Below, piece by piece: positions 1-49,106 of a stretch of 64,000 bases of DNA. Every line of letters begins with the position of its first letter. Position 1 is the first letter of the stretch. Location of the stretch: assembly GCA_024274695.1 (NCBI GenBank), contig JAJSAI010000019.1, positions 23,265-87,264 on the forward strand, written 5' to 3'. Made by a program: the position numbers and the translations under genes. The notes below the pieces were generated by a model. The model worked only from the letters and a program-made list of their open reading frames with translations. It searched no databases and was not told the DNA's origin. The DNA is from an archaeon. Its GTDB lineage: Archaea > B1Sed10-29 > JAJSAI01.

Positions 1-90
1 CTCAAATCACATATAAAAACTTTTTCCTAAAGGAAACAAAAATAGCAAATTTTGTTGCCTTAAGGAAATAAAAAACTAAAAAAAGGGGTT

Positions 91-267: not shown

Positions 268-370
268 ACGCCATTCCTCCTCCTTTTTTCTGGGGACAAA
301 CCAGGAACCAGGGGTATAAAAGGTTTTTCACGGGCAAACAATAAAAAAGTTTTAAAAAGTATTCTCTCGC

Positions 371-1081: not shown

Positions 1082-1114
1082 TCTTTTTATCCGAGCGCCT
1101 TTTGGTACACTAGC

Positions 1115-2230: not shown

Positions 2231-2260
2231 AATTTAAAGGAGTGTGTGATATAATTCCGC

Positions 2261-3301: not shown

Positions 3302-3336
3302 AACTTTTTAATTTCTTTTAATTCTTTTGAAGAGAT

Positions 3337-4819: not shown

Positions 4820-4823
4820 AATT

Positions 4824-5654: not shown

Positions 5655-5702
5655 CGCTTATTAACCTCAAAAGATAAATTTATTTAAAACTTTTTTGATT
5701 GC

Positions 5703-7010: not shown

Positions 7011-7066
7011 CAGAACTTAAGTAGGGGGCCAGTGTTTTTAAACTCTCCAGGCTTATTTAGCCTTTA

Positions 7067-17493: not shown

Positions 17494-17749
17494 GGCGTGC
17501 TGTCCATGAAACTGTTCGGATTCCTCAAGGGAGGTAAAGAAAAAGTCCTGTCAGAAGAAAAGCAGGAAGAGCCTGTTCCAAAGTACGCGGACAAGGAATG
17601 CGCGTTATGCGGCAAGCCAGAGGCGGACAAGAAGTGAGGAGGCAGTACTGGCACAAGAAGTGTCTCAGGAAAGCCAGGAAAATGGCCAAGAACGCGTTCT
17701 GAACCAGGGCACCAAAAAAATTATATTCGGGCAGTGTTTTAGTGTGCTG

Positions 17750-22230: not shown

Positions 22231-24516
22231 ATGAGCGCTCTCGCCTACACGGTCCTCGCGCTACTGGCTGTTAACAGCCTGTTCTCTGTTTCGGACTACT
22301 ACGCGCGGGTCACGACCCTGAAGACTCCTGAAAACATTCCTGCTGCTGTCATGCAGTACTCCATGCCCGGGAAAGAGTACTACCTCTCCTCCCTTAGGAC
22401 CGCGTGGGAGAAGGCAGCTGACGCCAAGAGAGAAGCGGGAAACATGTTAGAAGTGTACATAAAGGAATCTCTTTCTAACCTCGCCTTTTCCAGCTACTGC
22501 CGGTCCAAGCTCTCCGAGGTATACGGTTATGCCGGGTCAGCGTTCTACGCGACGGTCTCGCTCTTGGAAAGGGACGCCGCGGTCCTGAGGGACGCGGGCG
22601 TGGAAAACCCCAAGTACTCGGGCAGGGCCAGGCCAGTGTATCTCAGCCTGCTCCAGGCGGTCAGCGCGGTAGAGCATCCTGACAACCTCTCCTCGTCAGA
22701 ATCGTCCCGCAGGATAAGGGAAGGGCTGAAGGCAGGAAACTCAGACTACTTCAACGCGCTCGTAGGATACCCTGACGGTCTCTTCAGGGTAATGCTTGAC
22801 GAGCACAGGATGTTCCTGCTGGCCCTTGACTACCTTGACGCTGAGTACAAACAAGCGCTAGCAGAAGTGGAGTACAGGAACAGGCTACTGTCCTACAGGG
22901 CGAGAGAGTACGAGGCCAACAGGCTGGACGAGGTGGCGTGGAACAGGATCAGGCTAAGGGGAGGGATACTGTCCGGGGAAAGCTCTCCGGAGAACCCTGC
23001 CAGAGCATACCAGACCGCTAGGGAGTGGTCCCTGAAAACAACCGCTGTCACTGGCTCTGCTAGGGCGCTGTACTCAGCCGGAAGAAAGGCTGACGCCATA
23101 GTCCTGCTGCACGATCACTGCCTGGAAACAGAAAAGGTGATACGCGCTCTTGAGGGCGCGGTGGAAGCGGCCCGCGCGGTTGAAGAACAACTGCACCGCA
23201 GAGCGGTTAAGGCGTTTTCAAGCGCTTCAAGAGAGAGCGCGGGGTACTCGCTGGCGGAAAAAGCCTGTTCAGAGCAGAGTCCTCTTCTGGGAGAAAGCAT
23301 CCTCCTCTTACAGAAGTGCATCCGCTTGTCCGAGAAGACAAGAGAACCTGACCCTTCCTCGCTTGAGGGGGAAGAACTGGCGGATAACCTTTCAAGACTT
23401 GCCTGGGACAAGTACTACCAGCTGGAACAGTACCTTGACGATCCTGTCTTCCTGGACAGGATCAGGACAAGCCTTCAGCTGTTGGACGCGTCGTCGGACG
23501 ATCCGCTGCAGGCCGCTGCAGGATACCAGAAGCTCGTGCTGGAAATGGATGAGAAGCGCGCGGGGCTTGAGTCAGAGTATTCCGTGGTGCTGGAGAGCAG
23601 GGTGCTGGATTGCGGGAAGGAACAGGAAGTGAACGCCACAGTGTACTTCTCAGGCCCGCGCACCAGCGTTTACAGGGCAAGGGTCTTTCTCCCTGAACGA
23701 GTAGCGTTCCCTGACGGGTCAAAAAGCAAGATACTGTCTTCAGAAAACCAGTCCCTGAAGATCCCTGTGCACGTGTCCCCTGAATGCGTCAAGGTTTCTG
23801 AAGAACAGGTGAAGGCTGACGATACAAGGGTGTACTACGAGGAAGAGTGGAAGGTGAGATCCCCTCTGCCCGTGAGGCTTGCTGACGGGACGGTGACAGC
23901 GTCCCTCGCGAAGGTGCTCGTGTCACGCCCCTCGTGGCTGGTGGTGGGCAGGAAAGAACAGGGCAGCATGCTCGTGCTCACAGTCTTCAACCCAGGAGAC
24001 ACTCTGAAGAACGTGGTCCTGTCAGCAGACACTACCCGGGAAGTGGAGGAGTGCAGCTCCTGCATACTCAGGCAGGGGAAAGTTCTTTTCTTCATTCCAT
24101 TAGTCCGCGGAGGAGAGAAAAAAGTGCTGGAGGCCAGGCTCTCGGGGAACAGGACAAACGCCCTTTCCGAAAGTGTTCCCGAAGAACAGGAGGACTACAA
24201 GAACACTCTGCTGCTAGGACCCTTGAACACGAGCGGTTACAACGCCTTCATAGAGTCACGCGTGTTCGCTCCAGCGGCAGACGCTGGGAGCGAGGGCACG
24301 AACATCACTCTACAGGGTGAGGGCAAGAAAGACATTGTCCAGAGAAGAAACGTGTTGAAACCAGTCTCCCTGGAGGCACGTGAGGCCAGAGAACCTGACG
24401 AGCGTTCTAGCGGCAACTCCTACAAGTACTACGTGATACCCCTTGGTTTTGCTGTGCTTTCGTTCATGCTCCTGAAGAGGAAGCCCGCGAGGAAGAAGAT
24501 TGGGAGGGTCATATGA
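22231..24516 (+). CDS. Large secreted/surface protein (761 aa) with an N-terminal signal peptide and a C-terminal PGF-CTERM-like TM plus basic tail.
   Basis: N-terminal MSALAYTVLALLAVNSLFS. C-terminal YYVIPLGFAVLSFMLLKRKPARKK. Confidence 0.5.
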   Translation: MSALAYTVLALLAVNSLFSVSDYYARVTTLKTPENIPAAVMQYSMPGKEYYLSSLRTAWEKAADAKREAGNMLEVYIKESLSNLAFSSYCRSKLSEVYGYAGSAFYATVSLLERDAAVLRDAGVENPKYSGRARPVYLSLLQAVSAVEHPDNLSSSESSRRIREGLKAGNSDYFNALVGYPDGLFRVMLDEHRMFLLALDYLDAEYKQALAEVEYRNRLLSYRAREYEANRLDEVAWNRIRLRGGILSGESSPENPARAYQTAREWSLKTTAVTGSARALYSAGRKADAIVLLHDHCLETEKVIRALEGAVEAARAVEEQLHRRAVKAFSSASRESAGYSLAEKACSEQSPLLGESILLLQKCIRLSEKTREPDPSSLEGEELADNLSRLAWDKYYQLEQYLDDPVFLDRIRTSLQLLDASSDDPLQAAAGYQKLVLEMDEKRAGLESEYSVVLESRVLDCGKEQEVNATVYFSGPRTSVYRARVFLPERVAFPDGSKSKILSSENQSLKIPVHVSPECVKVSEEQVKADDTRVYYEEEWKVRSPLPVRLADGTVTASLAKVLVSRPSWLVVGRKEQGSMLVLTVFNPGDTLKNVVLSADTTREVEECSSCILRQGKVLFFIPLVRGGEKKVLEARLSGNRTNALSESVPEEQEDYKNTLLLGPLNTSGYNAFIESRVFAPAADAGSEGTNITLQGEGKKDIVQRRNVLKPVSLEAREAREPDERSSGNSYKYYVIPLGFAVLSFMLLKRKPARKKIGRVI

Positions 24517-24790: not shown

Positions 24791-25168
24791 ATGAAAGGTC
24801 TTACTCCCGTGGTCTCGGTTGTTCTCATAATAGGGATGATGGTCGTCGCCTCCGTGGCGTTCTACTACTGGATAATGCCGTACACCGGAAAAAAGGCGAC
24901 CCCTGAAACAACGTACTACTCCATGCATGTTGAATCGTGCAACCGGAGCCACATAACAGTCCGGAACACAGGGCTCCCGAGGTTCCATGACGCGAACGTT
25001 TCAGTCTATGATTCAACAGGGTCCAAGGTCGCCTGGTTTTATATTGACAGCCTGAACACGAGCGAGTCAAAATCCTTCCAGCTGAACCAGTCGCTCGAGC
25101 TCGGGCAAGAGTACACCCTCAGGTACGAGAAGATCCCGGGAGTCACGTTCGTGTGCAACGAGTACTAG
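24791..25168 (+). CDS. Archaeal type IV pilin-like protein with a class III signal peptide.
   Basis: MKG|LTPVVSVVLIIGMMVVASVAFYYWI fits the [KR]G-hydrophobic prepilin peptidase cleavage pattern. Several sequons follow. Confidence 0.45.
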   Translation: MKGLTPVVSVVLIIGMMVVASVAFYYWIMPYTGKKATPETTYYSMHVESCNRSHITVRNTGLPRFHDANVSVYDSTGSKVAWFYIDSLNTSESKSFQLNQSLELGQEYTLRYEKIPGVTFVCNEY

Positions 25169-25689
25169 GCTCTTTCAAGAATCCAGTCAGAAAAATCAAC
25201 ACGCTCTTTCTTCCTTTTCTTCCCTTCTGCTATTCTGGCGCATTCCTCCACCACTTCCTCCACTGTTTTTCCTGTGGTGTCCACCTGGAAGACCCTCTTG
25301 CTCCCGTACTCCTCAATCGCTCTGATGGTGCAGTAGTCCAGGGCTTCTGCCTCCGCGTTCTCAAGAACCTTTTTCTTGCTGTACCCTCTTCCAGAAATCC
25401 TCTTCATGAGCTCCTCAGGATGGGCTCTCAGCACGATAACGATAGAATCAGGCAGTCTCACCTCGCACGCTATGTGCCCTTCTATTATCACGTCCTCCTC
25501 TTTTGACAGTTCTTTCCTAAGCCTTTTCAGGTCTACCACGAGCTCTCCTTCATGCGTTCCTGTGTAAAGCTTTTTTTTCTTGATGTACTCTGTAAGGTGG
25601 ATTACTGGTTTTTTCAGACGCTTCCCAAGCTCTTCAGCGACAGTCGTTTTCCCGGTCCCAGGGGATCCTGTGATCACAAGCCTTTTCAT
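25165..25689 (-). CDS. Putative adenylate kinase / NTPase of the archaeal Fap7 (AK6) type.
   Basis: MKRLVITGSPGTGKTT P-loop, about 174 aa. Stop is TAG. Confidence 0.65.
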   Translation of the reverse strand: MKRLVITGSPGTGKTTVAEELGKRLKKPVIHLTEYIKKKKLYTGTHEGELVVDLKRLRKELSKEEDVIIEGHIACEVRLPDSIVIVLRAHPEELMKRISGRGYSKKKVLENAEAEALDYCTIRAIEEYGSKRVFQVDTTGKTVEEVVEECARIAEGKKRKKERVDFSDWILERA

Positions 25690-25912: not shown

Positions 25913-25934
25913 AGGGTGTTTTTTTGTTCAAAAG
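25913..25934 (+). repeat. 22-bp T-rich element AGGGTGTTTTTTTGTTCAAAAG, copy A. Direct repeat flanking nucS.
   Basis: Matches copy B at 26742-26766 with a single 1-nt indel and one mismatch. Confidence 0.4.
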
Positions 25935-26665
25935 TATTTTTCGAGTTTCGCCTGTTTCTGGCGGGAGTTGGCGACCTTGGTGGTACTGCCCACCTCGTAC
26001 TCTATCTTCTTGTACTCCATGCCTTCCTTTTCCAGGAACCTTTTCGCGTGGGCTGTAATGTCAGGAGCGCACAGGATACCCCTTACCCTGGAGCCCTTTC
26101 TCTTCCTGACCTCTTCCACGTACCTCTTCAGTTGTGAGACCGCGTTAAGCCCTGCCTTTCTTCTCTTGACCTCTATCAGCACGGTGTTGCCCTGCGCGTC
26201 CTCCGCCCAAATATCCACCATGCCCTTCGGGAGGATCCCCTCTCTTTTTACTGGCCTGAGCCCCTCTTCTATCACGCTCAGGTCCTGGGCGAGGGCGTCA
26301 GAAAGATGGGACTCTACCCCCACGACACAGGACCTCTGACGGTCCCTCAGGTCAAGAACGTGTAGTGCTATTATCCTGGAAAATGATACTGAGAGGACCT
26401 CCCCCTTGTTCCTCCCTGTTATTGTGATCTTCTCCCCGTCATAGTCCGTTGTGAACACTGTCCCTGTCTTCTGATAATTCACTGGAGGGGTCTTGAACGG
26501 CTGATGCACCAGGAACGTCCCGTCAGGCTTTATTATCACGATCCTCTCTCCAGGACCGAGCTTTGAAGCAGCCCTCCCGGCGTACGAGACCGTGCACTCT
26601 CCCACTATTATTATCGTCTTCTTCTGCTCCAGCCCCCTGTCTATGTCCCTCTTGCTTGAAAGCAT
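25928..26665 (-). CDS. nucS: NucS/EndoMS mismatch-specific endonuclease.
   Basis: Two-domain architecture with a C-terminal RecB-like nuclease region GMVDIWAEDAQGNTVLIEVKRRKAGLNAVSQLKRYV. Confidence 0.75.
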   Translation of the reverse strand: MLSSKRDIDRGLEQKKTIIIVGECTVSYAGRAASKLGPGERIVIIKPDGTFLVHQPFKTPPVNYQKTGTVFTTDYDGEKITITGRNKGEVLSVSFSRIIALHVLDLRDRQRSCVVGVESHLSDALAQDLSVIEEGLRPVKREGILPKGMVDIWAEDAQGNTVLIEVKRRKAGLNAVSQLKRYVEEVRKRKGSRVRGILCAPDITAHAKRFLEKEGMEYKKIEYEVGSTTKVANSRQKQAKLEKYF

Positions 26666-26769: not shown

Positions 26770-27225
26770 ATGTCCTTTCCGGAGAAAGAGCTTTTCATCC
26801 GAATGTGTCTGCCCGCGTATTCTCTCACCGAGGACGTCAGGGGAAGGCTCCTCTACTACCTGAAGAAAAGAAGCGTCCCGGACAATCTCCTGCGCGAGGC
26901 GTTCCCTGAGGACTATGACAGGATAATGTCGACAGTGATGCTGGAGAAGGGCTTCTTTTCCCTTAAGCCAAGGCTTGACCTGGTGATCAAGTACTTTCTG
27001 GAATACCACAACAGGGAAACGCCTTGCAAGGTTGAGGAAGGAAGGGTTGTTGGGTTCAGAGCGGAAAGAAAGGGAGGAGAGAACACCCTCATCGCAAGAG
27101 TCGCCCTTAAGTCAGGTCGCACGGTTAACGCGTCAACCAAGCTGGCTCCCGGGCTTGTTGTTAGAATAAACTTGAACGACAGGGTTTTCGTGCATAACAA
27201 GAAGGTCTGCCACGTGTTAGAATGA
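26770..27225 (+). CDS. Hypothetical protein translationally coupled to hycI (ATGA overlap). Candidate hydrogenase accessory factor.
   Basis: The ORF is listed from a TTG at 26755, but the first ATG is at 26770. No similarity to HycH or HypC is visible from sequence. Confidence 0.4.
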   Translation: MSFPEKELFIRMCLPAYSLTEDVRGRLLYYLKKRSVPDNLLREAFPEDYDRIMSTVMLEKGFFSLKPRLDLVIKYFLEYHNRETPCKVEEGRVVGFRAERKGGENTLIARVALKSGRTVNASTKLAPGLVVRINLNDRVFVHNKKVCHVLE

Positions 27226-27653
27226 ACAGGATAGCCGTCGCGTCCCTCGGCAACCCCCTGAGAAGGGATGATGGGATTACAGAGGTTGCCTGCAGGATGA
27301 TGGAAGAGAGAAACCGTTTTAAGGCAGACTACTACTACGGGGATCCCTTGAACTACCTGGGCAGGCTCGTTTCTTACGATCTCGTGTTCCTTGTGGACGC
27401 CGTGCTCTCAGAGGACCCTCCTGGGAGGGTCAAGCTCCTGGACATTGACTCTGTTTCAGGCCCTGGCCTTTCAACACACTCAGCGTCACTGGACCTCGTT
27501 AGAAGAATGCTTTCGGGAAAAAAAGTTTTCCTGATAGGCGTGACAGTCAGGGACACGGGATACGGGACCGGCCTGAGCCCGGGTGTGGATCCTCAGAGGA
27601 TCGCTGAAGAAATAGAGAGGATCATACTCGCCCGCGCTTCCGTCAGGCATTGA
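27222..27653 (+). CDS. hycI: [NiFe]-hydrogenase maturation endopeptidase (HycI-like).
   Basis: ASLGNPLRRDDGIT, VFLVDAV, PG, and STHSASLD match the GN/DDG/DAV/H pattern of HycI/HybD proteases. Confidence 0.75.
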   Translation: MNRIAVASLGNPLRRDDGITEVACRMMEERNRFKADYYYGDPLNYLGRLVSYDLVFLVDAVLSEDPPGRVKLLDIDSVSGPGLSTHSASLDLVRRMLSGKKVFLIGVTVRDTGYGTGLSPGVDPQRIAEEIERIILARASVRH

Positions 27654-27663
27654 TCTCATTTCT

Positions 27664-28062
27664 TCATTTTACCAGGTTCTTCAAATCCTCTTTCCTGGTG
27701 CTGGAGTAGTCGTACTCTGTGGAGAACGCTATCGCCTTAGGTCTCGCGGGGCACACGTCCCGGCACAGCCCGCACAGTATGCACTTTCCCATGTCAAAGT
27801 CTATCCTCCCCTTCTCGTGGAAGACTATCGCGTTAACAGGACAGTTCCTCTCGCACAGCCTGCATCCTATGCACCGTTTGGAATAGTATACTATTCTTCC
27901 CCTAAACCTCTGGTAGGGTTTCTTCTTCTGCTCGGGATAGTTCTCTGTCACCGGCCTCCTGAAAAGCCACGCGAGCACCTCTGTTTTCAAGCCCATGAGC
28001 CCACCCACAGTACCCTCATCAAGTCTATTACCGCGACAAAGAACGCTGCCAGCACGTACCAC
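27664..28062 (-). CDS. Group-4 hydrogenase 2x[4Fe-4S] ferredoxin subunit (NuoI/EchF-like).
   Basis: CIGCRLCERNCP and CILCGLCRDVCP. Overlaps the upstream membrane subunit. Confidence 0.75.
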   Translation of the reverse strand: MVRAGSVLCRGNRLDEGTVGGLMGLKTEVLAWLFRRPVTENYPEQKKKPYQRFRGRIVYYSKRCIGCRLCERNCPVNAIVFHEKGRIDFDMGKCILCGLCRDVCPARPKAIAFSTEYDYSSTRKEDLKNLVK

Positions 28063-28844
28063 ACGGTGGTGTGCAGCGTAAACCTTGGAGTGGTCGCGTC
28101 TGAATACGCCATCGCCATGAACAGGATCACGAAACTCACTATCCAGAAGAGCAAGTTTCCTCCTGCGAACAGGCTTGACAGCAGGCTTATGAAAAAGAAC
28201 CTTTTCAGCATCTCCCCGAGGTCCAGGAAGAACAGGGACCTTCCGGAGTACTCCGTGCTAACCCCTGGAAGGATCTCGCTTTCCGCGGCCCCGGTGTCGA
28301 ACTGGGTTACCTTGCTTTCCACGAGGGCCACGGCTATCAGGGCAACGGCTGACGGGACCAGTCCCAGAATGCTCAGGTCCTTTATTCCTGCAAGCGTGAT
28401 CGTGCTAGAGTACACGACGAACGAGATGATCGCGGCGGCGAGGGCCGTCTCGTATATTATCATGAGCCTCATTTCCCTCATGCTGGCGAGCATGCCGTAG
28501 GGGGAGTCAGAGCTTATTCCCGCGAGCACGTAAAAAGCGCTTGAGAGCACGGTCACGTACAATAGGAAAATGAAGTCGTACGGGAAAGAAATCACCTGGA
28601 ACGGGACCAGCATCAGTCCCACGAAAAGGGTGGTGCAGTACATGAATGGCGAGATCATGAAGAACCAGTCGTTCTTGGTCGGGATCCTCTTCTTTGCCCA
28701 GAGTTTCCTGAGATCGTAAAAAGGTTGTACTACGGGAGGGCCTCTCCTGCTCTGCATTCTCGCGATCACCTTGCGGTACACCCCGTCAGCGAGGACCGCG
28801 AGGAAAGGGGATGCAACCCAGAGCACCAGGTTCAGCCAGGGCAC
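27987..28844 (-). CDS. Group-4 hydrogenase membrane subunit (NuoH/EchB-like).
   Basis: 285 aa with about 8 TM and a NuoH-like profile. 13-nt overlap with the large subunit. Confidence 0.7.
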   Translation of the reverse strand: MPWLNLVLWVASPFLAVLADGVYRKVIARMQSRRGPPVVQPFYDLRKLWAKKRIPTKNDWFFMISPFMYCTTLFVGLMLVPFQVISFPYDFIFLLYVTVLSSAFYVLAGISSDSPYGMLASMREMRLMIIYETALAAAIISFVVYSSTITLAGIKDLSILGLVPSAVALIAVALVESKVTQFDTGAAESEILPGVSTEYSGRSLFFLDLGEMLKRFFFISLLSSLFAGGNLLFWIVSFVILFMAMAYSDATTPRFTLHTTVWYVLAAFFVAVIDLMRVLWVGSWA

Positions 28845-29989
28845 GAGTACTTCCTCCTGAACTCTTTTTCCCTGAGCTCTTCAACCCTGCCGTTCTTTTC
28901 TACAAGGACTCTTTCAAGGCAGGAGAAGCAGGGGTCAAGGGACGCTACTATGACGGGCACGTCTCCTACGACCATGCCTGGAAGCAGTTCTTCAAGGATC
29001 TTCATGTAAGAAAAGCTGGGTGTTCTTATCTTCGCTCTCTCCACCCTGTTGTTCTTGAACCTTAGGTAGTAGAAGAGCTCTCCTCTCGGCGCTTCCACCC
29101 GGGCGTGACCCTCTCCCTCAACCCTGGAAAGAGAGTGGGGAGGGATCTTCTCGTCCGGGAGTCCTGAGAGCACGCGTTCTACTATCCTCGCGGATTCCAT
29201 GACCTCCGTGAGCCTGACCTTCAGCCTTTCCAGCGCGTCCCCCCTCTTCCCGGCCGCCATTTCAAAGTCTATCCTGGAGTACCAGTCGTACGGGTCTATC
29301 TTACGGGTGTCTATCCTCACTCCTGACGCCCGGGCTATGGGGCCTGTCAGCCCCCATTCCAAGGCCATGCTCTTCGGGATCGTTCCAACGTTCTTGAGCC
29401 TTGACACGACAACTTCTTCCTTCATGCAGTCGTTGTAGTAATCTCTGGTTTTCCTTGCCACGCTCCGAACCTGCTGTAGTATGAACTCGGGATCCTCTTC
29501 TTCCATGTCGTACCGCAGTGTTCTTATCTTGTTAATGTTATGATGGACCCTGCCCCCGGTTATTTTTTCAAAGCAGTCAAGCACCTTTTCTCTTTCCCTC
29601 CAGAAGTAGTTGAAAAGGGTTTCAAGGCCTATCTCGTGCATCATGAACCCTGCCCAGAGAAGGTGGCTCTGCATCCTCTCAAGCTCGAACAGCACTGTCC
29701 GGATGGCCTTCACTCTTTCAGGAGCATCGTACCCGAGAATGTTTTCCACCGTGCGCACGTACGCCCTCTCGTGAGTAATACTGCATATACCGCATACCCT
29801 TGAAGCAACGTACAGGGCCTGGTCAGGGTTTTTCCCCTCCAGCAGGTACTCTATCCCCCTGTGAGTGTACCCCGTTACCATCCTGACCTTCTGGACCTCC
29901 TCTCCCTCAAGGCAGACCTTGAGGAGTATGGGCTCTTTTATCGCAGGGCTCTGTGGCCCGACGGGCATTACGAAGTCATGCACTCTCAT
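28832..29989 (-). CDS. [NiFe]-hydrogenase large (catalytic) subunit, group 4.
   Basis: N-terminal Ni-binding RVCGICSITHE and C-terminal DPCFSCLER. As in E. coli HycE, the maturation protease would cleave after the Arg, removing about a 25-aa tail. The Cys pairs are present, so this is a true hydrogenase rather than NuoD or Ehr. Confidence 0.85.
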   Translation of the reverse strand: MRVHDFVMPVGPQSPAIKEPILLKVCLEGEEVQKVRMVTGYTHRGIEYLLEGKNPDQALYVASRVCGICSITHERAYVRTVENILGYDAPERVKAIRTVLFELERMQSHLLWAGFMMHEIGLETLFNYFWREREKVLDCFEKITGGRVHHNINKIRTLRYDMEEEDPEFILQQVRSVARKTRDYYNDCMKEEVVVSRLKNVGTIPKSMALEWGLTGPIARASGVRIDTRKIDPYDWYSRIDFEMAAGKRGDALERLKVRLTEVMESARIVERVLSGLPDEKIPPHSLSRVEGEGHARVEAPRGELFYYLRFKNNRVERAKIRTPSFSYMKILEELLPGMVVGDVPVIVASLDPCFSCLERVLVEKNGRVEELREKEFRRKYSCPG

Positions 29990-30293
29990 CCCTCCTCATG
30001 GGCGGCTTGCCCTTCCAGTCCTCGGGCAGGAAGAGTTTCAGGTGCAGGTTCTTGTTGCCCTCGAACTCAACCCCGTAAAAGTCGTGGATCTCCCTCTCAT
30101 AGAAGTCCGCGGGAGGAAACTCTTCCGCCAGGCTTTCCACGACCGGGGACTCTTTAGGCACCCTCAGTTCCTTGAAGAAAATGTTGTGATCCTTCCCGTC
30201 AAAGTAGTACCTCAGCCTGAACTCCTCCCCCATGTCGTCGCACACTATCGCGATAAGCCTGTTATCCTTTAGAAGCTCTTTCAAGAACCTCAA
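29976..30293 (-). CDS. NuoC/EchD-like subunit.
   Basis: FPPADFYEREIHDFYGVEFEGN matches the NuoC 30-kDa subunit signature. Confidence 0.7.
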   Translation of the reverse strand: MRFLKELLKDNRLIAIVCDDMGEEFRLRYYFDGKDHNIFFKELRVPKESPVVESLAEEFPPADFYEREIHDFYGVEFEGNKNLHLKLFLPEDWKGKPPMRRDESA

Positions 30294-30678
30294 CCCCCTT
30301 TAGTATGCCGTCTATTACAGCTTCCGGTCGCGGCGGGCATCCTGGGACGTACACGTCCACGGGTATTATCCTGTCCAATGGCCCCGCGTGATTGTACGAT
30401 TCCGCGAAAGGCCCGCCTGACACCGCGCACGCTCCCACAGCCACCACCACCTTCGGGCTTGCCATCTGGTCGTACACCGTTCTTATCCTGTCAGCGTTTT
30501 TCTTGTTTACCATCCCCTCCACCACGAGGATGTCAGCATTCCTCGGGCTGTGCTTTATCACTATCCCGAGCCTTTCCACGTCGTACCTGGGCGTGGCCAC
30601 GGCGAGCACTTCAAGATTGCACCCGTTACAGCCAGCCCCGTGGAACACGAACACCCACGGAGATTTTTTGAAAGTCAT
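30262..30678 (-). CDS. [NiFe]-hydrogenase small subunit (NuoB/EchC-like, proximal 4Fe-4S cluster).
   Basis: GCNGC, GACAVSGGP and CPPRPE cluster ligands. The true start is MTFKK at 30676-30678, and it overlaps the upstream microprotein stop as ATGA. Confidence 0.85.
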   Translation of the reverse strand: MTFKKSPWVFVFHGAGCNGCNLEVLAVATPRYDVERLGIVIKHSPRNADILVVEGMVNKKNADRIRTVYDQMASPKVVVAVGACAVSGGPFAESYNHAGPLDRIIPVDVYVPGCPPRPEAVIDGILKGVEVLERASKG

Positions 30679-30830
30679 ACGAGCATCACCGAGATGGAGA
30701 GTACTGCCAGCGAGATGAGCACTGCCGCGAGCTCCCATGGCTCGAAGAACGCTTCATAGCTCTCCGGAAGCACTCTGCCAACATCCCTCTCCCCTCCGAG
30801 GTATACTGTGACCTTCTCTTTTCCGTTCAT
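30675..30830 (-). CDS. 51-aa single-TM microprotein inside the hydrogenase operon. It is not in the ORF track as a separate gene.
   Basis: My own translation gives MNGKEKVTVYLGGERDVGRVLPESYEAFFEPWELAAVLISLAVLSISVMLV. Its ATG overlaps the upstream gene's TGA, and its TGA overlaps the small-subunit ATG (ATGA at both ends). Confidence 0.45.
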   Translation of the reverse strand: MNGKEKVTVYLGGERDVGRVLPESYEAFFEPWELAAVLISLAVLSISVMLV

Positions 30831-31693
30831 GTCATCAGCCCCAGGATGGTCTCCTGCAGCCAGGGGAACACGCCTAAGAGTATGACTGCTGCCGCCAGCG
30901 CGCCCGCGAACGCGAGGCGCGCTCTGTCTTCCTTTTTCCGTCTCCCCGGGCCTGCCAGCAGGTAGTACGCCACCTTGTAGTACATTATGAACAGCATCAT
31001 GGCAAGGAATATTCCAAGAAGTGTTATAAGCGGGTCCATCGCGAACCCTTTCGTGAAAAGAATCCACTCAGAGACGAAGATGTTGAACCCGGGAAGTCCT
31101 GCCAGGGAAAGGCAGGCTATTACAGTGAACAGGTCCGCCCACCTGCTCACGAACCAGCTTCCCATAAGGTCGCTCAGCCTCTCCTTCCTACGCGCGACCA
31201 TTCCAATTCCCAGGAACAAGAGGGATCCTGCGATCGTGTAGTCGAACACTTGTATCGTCTTCAAGAGGCCAGGGTCTGCTGACGCGAACGCAACACTCAG
31301 ATCAAGGGCCACGAAACCTATCTGCGCGAGGCTGCTTGCCGCCAGGAACCTGTACATCCGCGGCTCAAGGATACCGTACACCGCAAGCCCTCCTATGCCG
31401 AGAGCGAACAGTATCGCGAGCTGCTTTGACCCTGGGAGCAGCCCGTGCTCGTAGTACCAGAGGAGAGAGCTTGACACCAGTACAGCGGAGAGCATGTTAG
31501 CGTGCGCGAAAACAGAATAAGATCTTATTCTCGGGGACGCTATCACGATCCCCAGCGCCAGGACTCCTGCAGGAGAGTCCATCAGGAGCAGGGCCGCAGC
31601 AGAAGAGGCGAGTATCACTACTGCCTCCTTTTTCCCGCGCGCCAGCAGGAGGCTTGCGACCGTGACCAGTCCTGTGAGGAACGTCCAGAGCAT
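30827..31693 (-). CDS. Truncated NuoN/MrpD-like antiporter-type membrane subunit (C-terminal half only).
   Basis: SLAQIGFVALDLS resembles the SIAHMG..LLG signature. LSLAGLPGFNIFVSEW resembles the LSLAGIPPLAGF motif of NuoL/M/N. At 288 aa it is about half of a normal antiporter subunit. Confidence 0.55.
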   Translation of the reverse strand: MLWTFLTGLVTVASLLLARGKKEAVVILASSAAALLLMDSPAGVLALGIVIASPRIRSYSVFAHANMLSAVLVSSSLLWYYEHGLLPGSKQLAILFALGIGGLAVYGILEPRMYRFLAASSLAQIGFVALDLSVAFASADPGLLKTIQVFDYTIAGSLLFLGIGMVARRKERLSDLMGSWFVSRWADLFTVIACLSLAGLPGFNIFVSEWILFTKGFAMDPLITLLGIFLAMMLFIMYYKVAYYLLAGPGRRKKEDRARLAFAGALAAAVILLGVFPWLQETILGLMT

Positions 31694-37132: not shown

Positions 37133-38260
37133 TTGATGAAGACGGAGACAAAAATTCTGATACTCGCGCTCGTGCTCACCCTCTCAGCGGGTCCTCTTGC
37201 CTGGGTGTTCAGCTCGCCCGCAGTGAAGCAGCTTCCTCCAGTAAGCCCTGAGAAGGAGCACGGGGTGTCCAGTCTTGTGTCCTCGGTGAGCTTTGTTGTT
37301 CCCGCGAACATAACCCGTGCCGGGGACACTCTCGTGGTCTCGGGAAAATCACTGTTCGCCATGAAGGACACGGCAGAAGAGCTCGCCTGCGGTGTTGCTA
37401 AAGAGTACAACATCTCACAGGACAACTGCGAGGTGCTGATGGCCTTGAACCCTGACGGGCCGGGATACGTGTACACGGTCCAGGTTTCAGGGGTTAATGA
37501 CAGCATAAGAAAAGAGCTCGGTTTCAGGATAGTTTACAGGCTCAGGAGAGCGGGAGTTTTCGGCTCGGCGGTCGTGCCCCCCGTGTTCTCGGCGGTAGTC
37601 AGCCTGCCTGACACGATAGTCCTTCCTGATAACACCACGCTGAACAACTCAAAGCACATGGCCCTGTCAGGAGTGCCTGTGGTGTACTCTAGCAGGACCA
37701 ACGAGACAGTGCTACTGAACTGCACCGCGGCGGTTATAAGGAACAAGATACTCTCCCTCTCCGCGTGCAGGGACGTGAGAGCAGTTCCGGACGACAGGTT
37801 CATGGGACTGTCCCCCTTTGACCTCATGATAACCCCCCTGAAGTACTCTGAAGAGAACATTACCGTCGTGGCACAGAACGAGACCAGGATCACAGCATCC
37901 TTTGACCCGTCACTTAACATAACAGAGGAACAGGTGAAAAGCGCGCTGAACTGGACGAACGTTTACTCCGTGGCTATAGGGAACGGGTCCATGTCACTGC
38001 TCATAGCGCCTCTTGCCAATGTCTCCAGGGCAAGATCATCCCTGCAGGCCCTCGGTGCGTCGGTTGACTCGGTGGAGTGGAACACCAAGTTCCTGCTGGA
38101 CAAGCCCAAGATTACTTTGGACGGGAAGGAGTACCTGCTCCTGATAAACTTTTTCCAGGAATGGGTTAACGAGTCCCTTTCTCCTGGAACCGTCCTAGAA
38201 AAAAGGCTGGAGTTCAGCACCAAGTACGGGGAGATAATAGGCGTTGGGCTCGCTAGCTAA
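37133..38260 (+). CDS. Secreted protein with a signal peptide and 14 N-x-S/T sequons. Candidate surface glycoprotein.
   Basis: N-terminal ILILALVLTLSAGPLA. Sequons NIT, NIS, NDS, NTT, NNS, NET, NCT and others are read directly from the translation. Confidence 0.45.
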   Translation: MMKTETKILILALVLTLSAGPLAWVFSSPAVKQLPPVSPEKEHGVSSLVSSVSFVVPANITRAGDTLVVSGKSLFAMKDTAEELACGVAKEYNISQDNCEVLMALNPDGPGYVYTVQVSGVNDSIRKELGFRIVYRLRRAGVFGSAVVPPVFSAVVSLPDTIVLPDNTTLNNSKHMALSGVPVVYSSRTNETVLLNCTAAVIRNKILSLSACRDVRAVPDDRFMGLSPFDLMITPLKYSEENITVVAQNETRITASFDPSLNITEEQVKSALNWTNVYSVAIGNGSMSLLIAPLANVSRARSSLQALGASVDSVEWNTKFLLDKPKITLDGKEYLLLINFFQEWVNESLSPGTVLEKRLEFSTKYGEIIGVGLAS

Positions 38261-38576
38261 GCCGGAGTATCGCCTCTGCAATGTCCCCTCCGGTTTCACG
38301 CAGCGCTTTTTCAGCCTCTTCTGCTGTTCTCCCTGTCTTTTCTGCCACGAGCTTCACGTCATCCTCAGAGAACGGTTTAAGCTCCTCCTCAACCGCGTTA
38401 CCCATAACCTGCCAGGTCTTCTGGCCCTGCGCCTCGATAAGAAGCACCTGAGGATTCGTTATCCTGATTATCTTGTCTGATGACTTGATTATCACCTCGT
38501 CCGCCGGGACGGGAGACTGTTTTATTCCAAGCTGCTTCATCATCTTTTCCATCATCTTCGGATTCATTCCCATCAT
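38253..38576 (-). CDS. nac: Nascent polypeptide-associated complex alpha subunit.
   Basis: NAC domain VIIKSSDKIIRITNPQV plus a C-terminal UBA-like AEEAEKALRETGGDIAEAI. Stop is TAG. Confidence 0.8.
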   Translation of the reverse strand: MMGMNPKMMEKMMKQLGIKQSPVPADEVIIKSSDKIIRITNPQVLLIEAQGQKTWQVMGNAVEEELKPFSEDDVKLVAEKTGRTAEEAEKALRETGGDIAEAILRLS

Positions 38577-41683: not shown

Positions 41684-42895
41684 CTATTCCCCGAACTGTT
41701 TTTTCATGAGGTCAATAATGTTCTGGGCAGGGTACGCGAGTCTTATGAGGGTAGTGTTCCCCCTGACTCCTTTTCCTGAGAGGGTTGTGGTGATGAGCCC
41801 GAGCATTTCCAGTTCGTTCATGTACTCCTTGCACCATCTTGCGGTCCTAGGCTCTCTTCCCAGCACCCTGCATATCCTGTTGTACCTGTCGTATACTTCT
41901 CCTGTGAACAGCACGTTCTCGGCCACTGTTCCATCAAGCCTCGCGTAGTGCCCTCCTTCTTTCGAGAGCTGGGCTATCGCGTACAAGAGGATCTTCTGGT
42001 GCTCTGGCAGGGTCTTTATCACGTTGTACACGATCTCGTTCTCGACCCCTTTCCTGGCGAGGTTCACGTGCTTGTCCGTGACCTTCTGGTCTCCCATCTC
42101 GTCAGCTATTTCCCCTGCTTTGAACAACAGCCGGAGCGCGTACCTCGCATCTCCTGACTCGTTCGCGGCCAGGGCGCTGGCGAGGTTTATCGCGCTCTCG
42201 TCAACAGCCCCTGGCTTGAACCCAAGCTTTACCCTCTGTTCCAGGATATCTTTTAGTTCCTCAGCATTGTAGGGAGGGAACACGAGCTCGTCCTCGAACA
42301 ACGCGCTCTTGCTCCTTGGGTCGAGGGAGTCCTTGAAGTTTATGTTGTTGGAAATGCCGATCATGCTTATCCTTCCGGCGGCCAGCTCGTCGTTCGCCCT
42401 GGTTATGGTGTAAATAAGATCGTCCAGGTTCTTGACCTTATCAACCTCGTCCAGCACGAGTATCATGCTCAGGTTGTTGGACTGCACGTAGTCCACGACC
42501 TTCTGGAACAAGTGCGAGAAGGGAAACCCTAGGAAAGACTCTTCAGGGTAGCAGTACTCCGCGACCTTTAGCATGACCTGGTACTTCGTGTTTAGTATCC
42601 TGCAGTTAGTGTAAACACATTCAACGCTCGCCCCGTACTTTTTCTTGACCGCCATGAGTTTGTCAATAACATGCTTGGTTGACACCGTTTTTCCCGTGCC
42701 AGTCTTCCCGTACAAGAACATGTTGTTTATTGTTTTTCCGGACAGGGAAGGAGCGAGCTTTTGCATGAGCGCCTGGATTTGAGCCTCCCTGTGGGGAAGT
42801 GTTTCCGGGACAAAATGAGGGCTGAGCACGTTCCTGTCAACAAAAACAGTTGACTTCCTGAGCTCTTTTTCGAAGATATCATCCATCATCATCAC
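41684..42895 (-). CDS. cdc6: Orc1/Cdc6 replication initiator (paralog 1).
   Basis: PHREAQIQAL, LYGKTGTGKT Walker A, ILVLDEVD Walker B, and a C-terminal winged helix. Stop is TAG. Confidence 0.9.
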   Translation of the reverse strand: MMMMDDIFEKELRKSTVFVDRNVLSPHFVPETLPHREAQIQALMQKLAPSLSGKTINNMFLYGKTGTGKTVSTKHVIDKLMAVKKKYGASVECVYTNCRILNTKYQVMLKVAEYCYPEESFLGFPFSHLFQKVVDYVQSNNLSMILVLDEVDKVKNLDDLIYTITRANDELAAGRISMIGISNNINFKDSLDPRSKSALFEDELVFPPYNAEELKDILEQRVKLGFKPGAVDESAINLASALAANESGDARYALRLLFKAGEIADEMGDQKVTDKHVNLARKGVENEIVYNVIKTLPEHQKILLYAIAQLSKEGGHYARLDGTVAENVLFTGEVYDRYNRICRVLGREPRTARWCKEYMNELEMLGLITTTLSGKGVRGNTTLIRLAYPAQNIIDLMKKQFGE

Positions 42896-44147: not shown

Positions 44148-46748
44148 TTAAACAAAGTCTGCAAGGCTCTTCTGCTTCTGTGCTTCCGCCCTCTTCTCCA
44201 TTTCCTCGAGCTCGAAGAAGCTTTTCACGTCATTCTCTATCAGAATGAGCCTTTGCTTCAGGTACTCTGAGAGGTGATACTTGTTCGCGATGTTCTTTGA
44301 CACGTCAAGGTACTTTACTATGCCTCCCTTGCTCACGGTCAGCACGAGCTTGCCCCCGCATTTGTAACACTTGCCGGACAAGGGCGCTCTCCTGTAGACC
44401 GTGTTGCAGTCAACGCACCTGAGGCCCTGCTGTCCAAAGGCCCTAAGGTTTCCCATCATGTCCCGCATGAAATGGAAGTTTATTACCCTGCTCGCAAGGT
44501 CCCTTTCGTCCACCGCGAGAATCTTTTCCCCGAGGTCAAGCTGTTTTTCAACTTTTTCCGCCATTGTCTTGAGGGTTGTGTACGCTGACCTCACGGGCCC
44601 CTCGTCTATCCTGTGGGTCTCGTGAGTGTACCCGAACCCGTGATACTGTTCCGGCGTTTCAAGCCTGTCCTTTACGGTTTCTATTTTCACGTCCGACGGG
44701 TTCAGGTTGTTGCACGCTGCCTCGTAGTACTCCAGGGGGTATTCTGAGACCACGTCCATCTCGTGGACCTGGTCGTCCACTTCCCGAGGGTCTATTTTTG
44801 TTGTGAGCACCATGGCCGCGTCCATGGTGCCCCCTCTCGAGCTCGGGAGGTACTTCTTGCTGAAGTTCAGCAGTGCATCCAGCAAGAGCATGAACGCGTC
44901 CTCGTCGCCGTCACAGTCCCTCCTGCACGCGGCGTGCATGTACGGGTGCGCGTAGGTTCCCCTGGCCCTGTGGAACCCGATGATCCTGCCGAGAACTCCA
45001 ACAGAAATGTGCGGCGCGAGGCAGATGACCAGATGTCCCACGAGATCTTCTGGTTTTTCCGCGTTGTAGTATCTTGGCAGTCCGTAGAATTTTTCCAGCA
45101 GATCGTCAATGAACTTTGCTGTGGCCAGCACGTACTCTGCCGAGTCTTCTGGTATTACAATGTCCTGTACGAACAGCTCGCACACCTGTTCCGGGTCTGT
45201 GAGTGGGTTGCCGTCTTTGTCGTACAAGTACCCGAGCTCTCTTGCTTTTTCAACACTCAATCCTATCTCTCTTGGCTTGAAGTGGGTTAACGGCAGGTTC
45301 GTCGCGTCGAACCGTACCGTCCCGTCCCTGAACACGGTGACTCCGTGCTTTGCTCTAAGCATTCCCTTTTCCACGGGCTCGAAGAACTTGCCAGAGTTTA
45401 TCAGGCCTTCTACGGCCTTTGTTTTTTCAGGGGTTTTCTCGCCAAGCGTTTCCTCCGCTTTCTTGAGAAGGGTTTTCAGGTCTAGCGCTATGTGGGCGTA
45501 GGGCAGCGCTCTTCCTCCGCAGTGCTTGCACACCTCTGTTTTTCCTTTTTTTCCGCACTTGGTGCACGTGTAAACCACTTCTGTGCGTGCCCCGCAGTCG
45601 TGGCAGTAGTAGCTTAGCGTTTCCTTGTCGCACTTGGGGCACTTGAGCCGCACGGCTTCCACTGATACGACTCCCTTTTCAGCGGCCTTTTTCAGGAGCC
45701 TTGTTTTTCCTCCGCTGTACTTTATTGGGAACAGCAGGTGTGGCGGCGGGCTCATTTTCCTGGGTTTTGCTTTTTCAGGCCTGCCCATCCTGGCTCCGAC
45801 GAACGTTCCTCCTTTGTCCATGACCCTGAAACCGCACGCCTTGCTGATGGCTTCCAGGACATCATCTTCTTCCTCAAGAGCCCTTTCAAGGTCTTCCACG
45901 TGCTCAAGGCACAGTGTTTCTATCAGAGGGCCTGCTTCTTCTATTATTACCTTCCCTTCCCTGAGCTTGTGAGGAACCCCTATCCTTTCAAGGATCCTTT
46001 TTTCTTCTGAGACCCTCACCTCGAGCACCCTGCTATCTTCTCCTGCTATTCCTTTCACCGTGCTAGTGCTTCCGGTGGCAAGCCATCTCGCGAGCTTCGC
46101 GAGCTCCTGTTTTTCAAGCAGGTTATAGTAGTACAAGTACCTGGGATGCATTGGAAGCCCTTTCCACGCGAGCTCTACTGCCTGTTCAGAGCTCACGTTC
46201 CACGGGTCCATCCTCGCTCCATTTTCCTCGCATATCTTCTGCCACCATTCCTCACAGAATCCTGGCTTCACGAGAGGGTGGTTAGCTTTCAGGAAGTCCC
46301 CGTGGCTCACGAGAAGATCGCCCAAGAAGAGTATTTCAACTATGTCGTCCTTTACCTCCATCGCCCTCGGCACGCTGTCAACTCTTATGACGTCACCGTT
46401 CCTCAGGAGGACGGTCGGCCCTTCTATGGTGCTGACCGGGACCGTCACGCACCCTTTCCCAGGCCTTTCGAGCTTGAGCTGGGTTCCTATGGCCATGAAC
46501 TCGTTCACGAGGTACATGGTCGCAGGGTCCACTCCCTTCGCGTTCAGGCCCGTGTTCCTGCTCCTGCCGTACCTTAGTCTGAACCCTCCTGGCCTGCTCG
46601 GGTAAGCGAATATGGGCCTGCCGCCCACTATGTCCGAGAGGTACTTGGTCACGGGCTTTATTTCCTTTTTCTCTCCTGTTTTTTTGGTTATCCTGACTAT
46701 AGCCTCTATCCAGTCCCACCCGAGGTCATGTTTCTTGGAGTACTTCAA
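44148..46748 (-). CDS. DNA polymerase D large subunit (DP2), C-terminal 866-aa portion downstream of an in-frame TAG.
   Basis: Cys-rich zinc-finger cluster CPKCDKE...CHDCG...CTKCGKKG...CKHCG, typical of DP2. Reading across the TAG gives GGMALVIA*GIAQKAAKLLKY, which is consistent with the conserved motif spanning this junction in other DP2 proteins as recalled from memory. Confidence 0.8.
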   Translation of the reverse strand: MKYSKKHDLGWDWIEAIVRITKKTGEKKEIKPVTKYLSDIVGGRPIFAYPSRPGGFRLRYGRSRNTGLNAKGVDPATMYLVNEFMAIGTQLKLERPGKGCVTVPVSTIEGPTVLLRNGDVIRVDSVPRAMEVKDDIVEILFLGDLLVSHGDFLKANHPLVKPGFCEEWWQKICEENGARMDPWNVSSEQAVELAWKGLPMHPRYLYYYNLLEKQELAKLARWLATGSTSTVKGIAGEDSRVLEVRVSEEKRILERIGVPHKLREGKVIIEEAGPLIETLCLEHVEDLERALEEEDDVLEAISKACGFRVMDKGGTFVGARMGRPEKAKPRKMSPPPHLLFPIKYSGGKTRLLKKAAEKGVVSVEAVRLKCPKCDKETLSYYCHDCGARTEVVYTCTKCGKKGKTEVCKHCGGRALPYAHIALDLKTLLKKAEETLGEKTPEKTKAVEGLINSGKFFEPVEKGMLRAKHGVTVFRDGTVRFDATNLPLTHFKPREIGLSVEKARELGYLYDKDGNPLTDPEQVCELFVQDIVIPEDSAEYVLATAKFIDDLLEKFYGLPRYYNAEKPEDLVGHLVICLAPHISVGVLGRIIGFHRARGTYAHPYMHAACRRDCDGDEDAFMLLLDALLNFSKKYLPSSRGGTMDAAMVLTTKIDPREVDDQVHEMDVVSEYPLEYYEAACNNLNPSDVKIETVKDRLETPEQYHGFGYTHETHRIDEGPVRSAYTTLKTMAEKVEKQLDLGEKILAVDERDLASRVINFHFMRDMMGNLRAFGQQGLRCVDCNTVYRRAPLSGKCYKCGGKLVLTVSKGGIVKYLDVSKNIANKYHLSEYLKQRLILIENDVKSFFELEEMEKRAEAQKQKSLADFV

Positions 46749-46775
46749 GAGCTTGGCCGCTTTCTGGGCTATCCC

Positions 46776-47528
46776 CTATGCGATGACGAGAGCCATCCCT
46801 CCCCTGATCCGGTTCGTTTCTATCCTCGGAAGGTTCTTGTATATGCTGACCTCCAGTTCTGAGGTGGGAGTGCCGCTCACGCACACCGGACAGTTCCTCA
46901 CGATGTGCCTGACATCATCCTCTGGGGGATGGTACTGCAGTCTAGAAACGAGGTTGTGGTATATTTCTATCTCTTCAACGTACCTTTCAACCTCTTCTTT
47001 TGAGGGCCTGTACTCCTGCAGCCCCATCTTCTTCCTCGTGTAGTCGGCCAGGATGACCGAGAGCGCGGCGGCTGTTCCTCCAGCGGACCGGATCGGTCCC
47101 GCGTAGTACACTTCCAGGCACTGGGTCCCGTCAGGATTGTCCAGGATCCTTGTTCCCGCGATCCCTTCTGTTGCGGCGGCTGGGACAGCTTCAGTGATTA
47201 TCGCCACCCCTGTTCTTATGCACTGTTCTGCCAGCTCCTCCCTGGAGCTGAACTCTCCGAACTTCCCCTCAACTATCTCTTCTATTATCTTGAACGTCAT
47301 CTTTTCTCTGTCCATTTCCTTGAGGAGTTCTCTTATCCTCTCTGCAACTCCCTTTGGCCCCACCAGCCCTTCCACTCTTGCGGCGAGGTCCGCGGCGGGA
47401 GGGATCTCAACCTCTGTTGTCACGTCCTTCCCTTTGGACCTGGCTAGCTTTGCCAGAGAGTAGCATTCTTCTGTCCTTTCACGCATGTGCTGCCAGTACC
47501 ACTCTGTTCTCTCGCGCTTTAGGCTCAT
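46776..47528 (-). CDS. DNA polymerase D large subunit (DP2), N-terminal 250-aa portion ending at an in-frame TAG.
   Basis: EVEIPPAADLAARVEGLVGPKGVAERIRELL and YYAGPIRSAGGTAAALSVILADY match the known DP2 N-terminus. Its ATG directly abuts the DP1 stop. Confidence 0.8.
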   Translation of the reverse strand: MSLKRERTEWYWQHMRERTEECYSLAKLARSKGKDVTTEVEIPPAADLAARVEGLVGPKGVAERIRELLKEMDREKMTFKIIEEIVEGKFGEFSSREELAEQCIRTGVAIITEAVPAAATEGIAGTRILDNPDGTQCLEVYYAGPIRSAGGTAAALSVILADYTRKKMGLQEYRPSKEEVERYVEEIEIYHNLVSRLQYHPPEDDVRHIVRNCPVCVSGTPTSELEVSIYKNLPRIETNRIRGGMALVIA

Positions 47529-49106
47529 TCAACTCCCCTTGTCAAAGCGGACTACTTTTATGTTCATCCTGTTCAGGTCTATCACGGGAAGCTGGCAGGG
47601 GGTTGGCTTGTGCCCTTGTTTCTGCTGGTATGGTGTTATCTGCTGCCACGTGCCCCCGTTCACTGACACGACACCGTTCTGGTTTAGGTACGCGTTCTTG
47701 TGAATGTGCCCTGTCAGGATCATGTCCGGAAGCTCGTCTATCGTCATTGGGTCATCTTCTGTTGGTATGAGCGGCTTCCCGCCGTAGAACGGGTGCAGGT
47801 GTCTTGTCATGAGCACCTTCCTCAGGATCTTCTCAGGCTCGTTGTACGTGACAGTGTTCACGTTTGCCACGATGTCGTCAAAGCTGGTTCCGTGGTACAA
47901 GAGCGTTTTTATACCGTGGACATTCCACCAGCTCGGGCTGGTCCCGAAGTGAACGTTCCCGAGTCCCTTCAGTTCTGGCACGAGCTCTGGAGGGATGCTG
48001 GGCTGAGGGTCAGCGGTCCTGACCCCGTCATGGTTTCCTGGTATTATTATCACGTGTACGTACTCTGGGATCTGGAGTATGTACTCCGAAAACTTCTTGT
48101 ACTGTTCGAACAGGTCCTCGTACTCGAGTTCTTCCTCTTGTCCGGGGTATATCCCGATACCGTCTACAAGGTCGCCGGTTATTATCACGTACTTTACTTT
48201 TTCCGCGATCCGCAGGTACTTTTCGTTGTCCGTGTCCCCGTTGAGCCAGGCGATCATCTTCTCAAAGTTTTTCTTCATGAAAAGCTTGCTTCCAACGTGA
48301 GGGTCGGAGATGACTGCTGCCATCACCTCTTCTCCTGCCGATGCAGGGTCCTTCTTAGGCACTCCCGGTTCTATTATTGACTTTGCTATGAGCAGGCTCC
48401 CGTTGCCTTTACGCACGTCCACGGCGACGACCGTGTCGAGCAGAAGATCTTCTGCCAGCGCCATGAGCTGGTTATCGCTTTTCGGCACGAGCACGTTCGC
48501 CCGCCCGGTATCGTCCTCTAGGGTTATCATCAGGTGCCCGTTCTTCGTTCTCCTCTTCTCGTAGACGAGTCCTGCTATTCTGAGTTCTCTTTCTTTTCTT
48601 TTCCTCACATCGGTTATTTTCGTGATGCTCCCTCTTCTCCTGAGGATCTTGACCGTTTTCTCGTACCTGCTCCTGAAGTACGCCACGAAGTCTTCAACAT
48701 TCCCTCTGCTCAGGACTTCAGCGTCCCTTATCTTTTCCACCCTCGCCTCAACTTCTCTGGCGAGTGGCCTGAAAGAAGAAGGTCTTCTGACAACCACCTT
48801 CTTTTCTTCTTGGACGATCTTGGTCTTCTCCTTTTCCTGCAGGTCCTCGGGGGTCACGAAAAGTTTTCCGGAGCACTTCTCGGTTATCCTGTTGACGAGT
48901 TCTTCGGGGTTTTCAGATGATAGAACGAGCTTGACTGTTTCAGGAGCGAGGAGGAATCCTTTTTCTTCCAGGATCCTTATTGCCTCGCTTCCGTCCATAC
49001 TACACACTGTCCAATGTCTTTTTGGGATAGGGCCCGGGAGGAGAGGGGCTCCCAGGCCCAAAATCAGCTGGAACTGGGTGTAACCTCTGAACAAAAAGTT
49101 TCTCAC
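47529..49106 (-). CDS. DNA polymerase D small subunit (DP1, Mre11-like phosphoesterase).
   Basis: Metallophosphatase motifs GDLVDG and IIPGNHDGV, plus an N-terminal OB domain. Confidence 0.9.
   Translation of the reverse strand: MRNFLFRGYTQFQLILGLGAPLLPGPIPKRHWTVCSMDGSEAIRILEEKGFLLAPETVKLVLSSENPEELVNRITEKCSGKLFVTPEDLQEKEKTKIVQEEKKVVVRRPSSFRPLAREVEARVEKIRDAEVLSRGNVEDFVAYFRSRYEKTVKILRRRGSITKITDVRKRKERELRIAGLVYEKRRTKNGHLMITLEDDTGRANVLVPKSDNQLMALAEDLLLDTVVAVDVRKGNGSLLIAKSIIEPGVPKKDPASAGEEVMAAVISDPHVGSKLFMKKNFEKMIAWLNGDTDNEKYLRIAEKVKYVIITGDLVDGIGIYPGQEEELEYEDLFEQYKKFSEYILQIPEYVHVIIIPGNHDGVRTADPQPSIPPELVPELKGLGNVHFGTSPSWWNVHGIKTLLYHGTSFDDIVANVNTVTYNEPEKILRKVLMTRHLHPFYGGKPLIPTEDDPMTIDELPDMILTGHIHKNAYLNQNGVVSVNGGTWQQITPYQQKQGHKPTPCQLPVIDLNRMNIKVVRFDKGS

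Follow-up and report, generated by a model that had tools for sequence, protein, structure and literature searches.

The large subunit DP2 of the archaeal replicase PolD is well known from structures of the Pyrococcus abyssi protein (PDB 5IJL and 6HMS) and of the N-terminal domain of its Pyrococcus horikoshii counterpart (3O59), and PolD has proven essential in every archaeon tested, namely Thermococcus, Methanococcus, Halobacterium and Haloferax (PMC7776575). Here we analyzed the DP2 gene carried by a 64,000-nucleotide stretch of an archaeal draft assembly (contig JAJSAI010000019.1, positions 23,265 to 87,264; hereafter, the window). This gene has the same domain order as canonical DP2 and the same DP1-DP2 operon arrangement, but TAG occupies its codon 251, where Glu is otherwise universal.

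Two described situations resemble this arrangement. In archaea that decode TAG as pyrrolysine (Pyl) and use Genetic Code 34, 'Category 1' genes contain an internal TAG with homology both before and after it (Kivenson et al., 10.1101/2024.09.30.615893), a property shared by the window DP2. Unlike the members of that class, the window DP2 stands alone, no other gene of this kind being present in the 64 kb, TAG terminates conserved genes around it, the affected residue is an invariant Glu, and neither Pyl machinery nor a matching tRNA was seen. The second situation is that of errors in uncurated metagenome-assembled genomes (MAGs) and single-amplified genomes (SAGs) (PMC7111523), with which the window shares an isolated defect, an 'incorrect protein-coding gene sequence', a draft assembly and normal neighbours, although the fit is reached here by exclusion and not by direct observation.

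We found that, apart from this codon, the gene is intact and its two parts are conserved together as a single unit, that TAG terminates genes in this lineage, and that the closest relative has Glu at the site. On balance we favour the reading that the TAG does not belong to the working gene of the population, and that the base is probably wrong or unrepresentative, reflecting an error or an allele that does not represent the population.

A single stop codon interrupts an otherwise complete DP2 gene

The DP2 gene occupies 47528..44148 on the minus strand and comprises 1126 codons, which translate with one internal stop and no frameshifts. A first-pass annotation, made by a model from the letters of the window, had described a 250-aa and an 866-aa minus-strand open reading frame (ORF) lying in the same frame with a TAG between them, and had assigned both to DP2. 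Sequence and translation confirm the former claim: the two ORFs (46776..47528 with an ATG start, and 44148..46748 with a TTG start) share one frame, the minus-strand letters at the site are ...CTC GTC ATC GCA TAG GGG ATA GCC CAG..., and the junction reads GGMALVIA*GIAQKAAKLLKY when translated through. The assignment to DP2 holds as well, with matches to PDB DP2 structures at E about 1e-141 and to four Pfam families (PF03833, PF24844, PF24846 and PF22912), all far over cut-off and with their domains in order, and with the catalytic acidic motif CDGDED in place. The deposited record itself has the TAG, with the 250-aa and 866-aa products both listed as singleton proteins at NCBI and encoded on one 93,345-bp contig.

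Taken alone, the N-terminal piece matches PF03833 (PolC_DP2_N, E=6e-99) from profile position 2 to 240 of 271, while the C-terminal piece matches PF24844, PF24846 and PF22912, covering the central domain, the catalytic domain and the zinc finger at the C-terminus; a product ending at the TAG would have none of the catalytic domains. When the stop is read through, the PolC_DP2_N model extends to residue 278 and profile position 269 of 271, gaining 30 bits. Because this model is cut at position 240 and resumes to position 269 upon read-through, the break lies inside a domain and not between domains. Mapped onto P. abyssi DP2, the stop falls within a KH-like globular domain (residues 85-283), where it aligns to approximately E256 in the context LVLAEGVLQK. 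Where a canonical locus has one uninterrupted DP2 polypeptide beside DP1, the window thus has an intact DP1 and a DP2 frame broken at codon 251, preceded by a GGGGAG located 4 nt before the DP2 ATG.

The interrupted position is conserved and the gene has been maintained as one unit

In an alignment of database homologues, the column of the stop is Glu in 119 of 119 sequences and the next column is Gly in all 119, and a second alignment of longer sequences likewise has Glu in every case (28/28), in agreement with the first-pass placement of the stop at a conserved Glu. The first-pass remark that the junction is consistent with a conserved DP2 motif also agrees with the 119-homologue alignment, in which the surroundings of the site form the highly conserved pattern R-G-G-x-x-L-x-x-x-E-G-x-x-x-K-x-x-K.

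The closest relative found, in a scan of the species representatives of GTDB, is a MAG labelled Candidatus Micrarchaeota (contig CAZVAJ010000001.1; hereafter, L001). The DP2 of L001 is a single uninterrupted ORF of 1599 aa (L001:9998-14797), which is 80.4% identical to the window DP2 with a 473-aa intein set aside, and its codon at the site is GAA (Glu), flanked by 29 residues that are identical in the two proteins and often encoded by synonymously different codons. A scan of JGI metagenomes with the junction peptide, in which the middle codon was left free, matched one contig (L015), also with GAA, and returned no second instance of a stop at DP2 codon 251. L015 equals L001 in sequence where it was read (the junction DNA and DP1) and was taken as the same population, and the relatives compared for synteny below are this one related population. 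The first-pass suggestion to look for GAG in related genomes was therefore borne out as regards an uninterrupted gene with a Glu codon, present in both L001 and L015, but not as regards the codon itself, which is GAA. In a separate search of 5.8 billion database proteins the best DP2 identity was about 51%; since this search missed the 80%-identical L001, its report of no close relative is unreliable, and little weight can be placed on the lack of further relatives.

The intein of L001, which contains an insert of homing-endonuclease size and is also found in L015, is located exactly within the catalytic motif (CRRDC / intein / DGDED), and the window DP2 is free of it at this site.

The conservation of the gene extends evenly over both sides of the stop. 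Among 224 highly conserved columns of the 28-sequence alignment (at least 95% conserved), the window DP2 retains 221, divided into 51/52 in the N-terminal and 170/172 in the C-terminal part, and at least one of the exceptions, Ala-119, is visibly common to the window and L001. Identity to L001 is 80.8% over codons 1-250 and 80.3% over codons 252-1126. We relied on identity and column retention in these comparisons, as about half of the identical-residue codons differ synonymously between the window and L001 and the synonymous divergence (dS) is probably near saturation. Directly downstream of the stop, codons 252-260 encode nine residues that are all identical to those of L001 despite five synonymous differences; these codons have therefore been translated for essentially the whole period since the window and L001 lineages separated. 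A decaying pseudogene was considered and rejected, given the single stop, the lack of any frameshift, the 221/224 columns kept and the equal identity on either side.

The neighbourhood presents the same picture. The window is collinear with 24.8 kb of L001 over approximately 35-58 kb, with the same gene order, and 19 of 19 syntenic orthologues align end to end, DP2 alone being interrupted. DP1 is 74.7% identical to its L001 orthologue from end to end, and the remaining replication gene neighbourhood is likewise intact.

TAG terminates other genes of the window and is unlikely to be decoded in DP2

The other genes of the window (n=68) end with TAG in about 9 cases, with TGA in 39 and with TAA in 20. 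Those TAG-ending genes that have Pfam matches contain complete C-terminal domains (amidohydrolase, 344/345; Cdc6_C, 94/96; NAC plus UBA, 40/41), and the first-pass statement that TAG is a normal terminator of cdc6, nac and adk proved accurate, all three ending in TAG with complete Pfam C-termini (Table 1). Moreover, three genes that end with TAG in L001 have window orthologues that stop at the same residue with TAA or TGA. At all four aligned ends (Cdc6, NAC, a 252-aa membrane protein and a class I aminoacyl-tRNA synthetase) protein conservation collapses right after the stop, and the read-through extensions of Cdc6 and NAC are not conserved relative to L001. Reading through the other TAG-ending genes leads to another stop after 8-55 codons; within the window, only in DP2 does read-through of TAG lead into homologous sequence, and none of the other ~68 genes contains an internal TAG with coding sequence on either side. 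Judged from these gene ends, TAG functions as a terminator in this lineage.

Many neighbouring genes of the window share a frame with a TGA between them, and we also considered a general recoding of TGA but rejected it: about 11 of about 45 same-strand pairs are in frame, at or below the one in three given by chance, and the paired genes belong to unrelated families.

These observations bear directly on the idea that pyrrolysine machinery or a suppressor tRNA(CUA) reads the TAG in DP2 as an amino acid and so allows the full-length protein to be made, which we regard as very improbable. Homology on both sides of the TAG is what places DP2 close to the published 'Category 1' class and speaks for decoding, yet genes decoded in this manner are expected where TAG is unused or rare as a true terminator and where other genes also have internal TAGs. 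In the window, by contrast, about 9 of 68 other genes terminate at TAG with complete domains and conservation stopping there, DP2 has the only internal TAG, the TAG of Cdc6 is present in both genomes, and TAG is exchanged for TGA or TAA at orthologous ends. An invariant Glu site would, in addition, be ill suited to a lysine derivative as bulky as pyrrolysine, and the nearest relative encodes this residue with GAA.

The search for decoding machinery and signals points in the same direction. No tRNA was found in the window with ARAGORN, neither the window nor L001 gave a tRNA or any other Rfam match, and no Pyl machinery or tRNA(CUA) was seen in either; the search covered the window and L001, which leaves some room for decoding genes elsewhere in the source genome. 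There is also no downstream element resembling the pyrrolysine insertion sequence (PYLIS), and the 150 nt around and after the TAG are less stable than shuffled controls (z=+1.65), a result that weighs against decoding to the extent that such an element is needed; a PYLIS-like mRNA element is not strictly required for Pyl insertion (PMC12626013). The phyla reported to encode Pyl comprise Halobacteriota, Thermoplasmatota, Asgard, Thermoproteota, Hydrothermarchaeota and Hadarchaeota (MSBL1), and DPANN and Micrarchaeota are not in this list (10.1101/2024.09.30.615893).

A shade less probable again is the specific scenario of a real and fixed TAG, in which a DPANN-type archaeon sustains its essential replicase through amber decoding at an invariant Glu. 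For this the cell would have to possess a suppressor tRNA, a Pyl system gained by lateral transfer, or efficient read-through. If true, stop-codon recoding would reach a lineage and a class of genes with none known, and the case would be the first sign of amber suppression for this lineage as well as for core replication genes.

The sequence downstream of the stop offers no evident site for reinitiation

Split genes occur in small archaeal genomes, and a naturally split DP2, in which residues 1-250 and about 261-1126 reassemble after the second piece is reinitiated at the TTG at 46748, would have this general precedent in its favour, together with the length of both ORFs and the database gene calls that list two proteins. 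We nevertheless consider it the least probable of all the readings examined. The first in-frame starts after the stop are TTG-261 (46748), GTG-293 and GTG-301, in line with the first-pass remark that a restart would need the TTG and would find no well-spaced Shine-Dalgarno (SD) sequence. No SD-like motif is present in the 25 nt upstream of TTG-261 or at a useful spacing before GTG-293 or GTG-301, nor does one precede any in-frame start up to 50 codons past the stop, whereas a clear GGAGG or GGAGGT lies 1-9 nt ahead of many genes of the window.

A protein started at TTG-261 would, furthermore, lose EGIAQKAAK, including four invariant residues, and codons 252-260, with no amino-acid and five synonymous changes relative to L001, are conserved as protein. 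The break is not conserved in relatives, as L001 and L015 are uninterrupted and 119 of 119 homologues read Glu-Gly across the site, and it falls within PolC_DP2_N (240/271) and the KH-like domain instead of at a domain boundary, the sole start candidate behind it being the TTG nine codons downstream, which lacks an SD sequence.

An error or unrepresentative allele is favoured over a recent nonsense mutation

The interruption of DP2 is thus unlikely to be an evolved split, and equally unlikely to be a recoding signal; an error or a very recent mutation remain. The first-pass annotation had listed four explanations without ranking them, and of these, sequencing or assembly error and a population variant or mutation are the ones that survive, while split with reinitiation and amber suppression or Pyl-type readthrough do not fare well.

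According to the reading that we favour, the locus would hold one ordinary single-polypeptide DP2 gene with an isolated one-base lesion at the invariant Glu-251, and the functional protein of the living population would carry Glu at this position. The TAG would then stem from a fault in base calling, in the consensus or in local assembly, or it would be an unrepresentative allele that became fixed in the consensus sequence of an uncurated assembly, be it metagenomic or single-cell. The simplest path to it may be a GAG to TAG change, corresponding to C to A on the plus strand at 46778. Such an origin had been put forward in the first-pass annotation, and as a one-step path it is plausible, GAG accounting for 45 of the 110 Glu codons of the window DP2 gene, but the ancestral GAG is deduced, and the nearest relative has GAA.

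What tips the balance toward error or an unrepresentative allele is that PolD is essential wherever tested, that a replicase null allele should not last as the majority form, and that uncurated MAGs carry local errors, which are documented to result in incorrect protein sequences (Chen et al. 2020, PMC7111523). The essentiality of PolD, invoked in the first-pass annotation, is supported by the literature (PMC7776575), and since it applies to all archaea tested, a majority DP2 null allele is unlikely a priori.

Several points weigh against this reading. An error would be diagnosed here by exclusion and not by its direct observation in reads, and a real mutation would give an identical sequence picture. 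No other broken gene was found in the ~23 kb compared, and because this remainder is clean, the assembly does not seem to be generally error-ridden.

The same points lend some weight to a genuine nonsense mutation that arose very recently in the cell or population sequenced, which we consider possible though clearly less likely. In this case the TAG would mark a newly inactivated DP2 allele that is tolerated briefly, is one of several chromosome copies, or is compensated for, either by rare near-cognate read-through or by a different polymerase. A single substitution with no further decay and with equal conservation on either side is as expected if such a mutation were very young, and the lack of other defects in the surrounding assembly is somewhat against a sloppy consensus. 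On the other hand, the essential role of PolD, the intact state of DP1 and of the replication neighbourhood, and the shortened product without any catalytic domain all argue against it, and a null replicase allele in the majority would be expected to disappear quickly.

The main value of the case is practical. As deposited, an essential polymerase is presented as two spurious proteins (250 and 866 aa), and the proper annotation would be one DP2 with a suspect base. It also shows that a lone internal stop in a draft archaeal genome calls for a look at the reads before it is given a biological meaning.

Other features of the window

The coordinates of the DP2 locus and of the control genes are listed in Table 1.

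Table 1. Features of the PolD locus and TAG-ending control genes, in window coordinates.
Feature	Position	Strand	Remarks
In-frame TAG	46776..46778	-	DP2 codon 251; invariant Glu in homologues
DP2 codons 1-250, N-terminal part	46779..47528	-	PolC_DP2_N cut at profile position 240/271
DP2 codons 252-1126 plus TAA stop	44148..46775	-	Rest of N domain, central, catalytic (CDGDED), C-terminal zinc finger
DP1 (PolD small subunit), intact	47529..49106	-	Metallophos, DNA_pol_E_B and OB domains; TGA abuts DP2 ATG
TTG, codon 261, sole nearby in-frame restart candidate	46746..46748	-	Judged not functional
Cdc6/Orc1, control, ends TAG	41684..42895	-	Cdc6_C complete; L001 orthologue also ends TAG, 403 aa in each
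NAC, control, ends TAG	38253..38576	-	L001 orthologue ends TGA
Adenylate-kinase-like AAA_18 protein, ends TAG	25165..25689		Complete Pfam C-terminus

Among the other genes related to DNA replication and repair, an intact NucS/EndoMS mismatch endonuclease (25928-26665, minus strand) is located ~18 kb from the PolD operon; a search for origin repeats near cdc6 gave nothing convincing. The ThyX ORF (17510-19090, plus strand) is unusually long, with 476 aa from its GTG and a frame open up to 526 codons, and combines two Thy1-matching stretches with a very basic N-terminal extension rich in Lys, Arg and Ser. A 339-aa NFACT_N protein (11885-12904, plus strand) matches its profile at positions 2-351 of 456, has no NFACT-R domain and is separated from the following gene by only ~400 nt, and could represent a truncated or a naturally short form. 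Two plus-strand ORFs of 761 aa (22231-24516) and 375 aa (37133-38260) have no Pfam match, and the latter is 41% identical to its L001 orthologue, compared with 62-90% for its neighbours.

G+C content is 0.44 in positions 1-8000 of the window and 0.50-0.56 elsewhere, which could reflect acquisition of this part or a boundary in composition; an MFS transporter, an FAD oxidoreductase, UbiA, a KaiC-like ATPase and a beta-CASP nuclease are among the genes encoded there. Finally, positions 27222-31693 encode a module resembling a membrane-bound energy-converting [NiFe] hydrogenase, with NADHdh, Complex1_49kDa/NiFeSe large subunit, Oxidored_q6 and antiporter-like subunits, accompanied by a HycI-like maturation protease. 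The Micrarchaeota, whose label the closest relative bears, are usually described as metabolically reduced.

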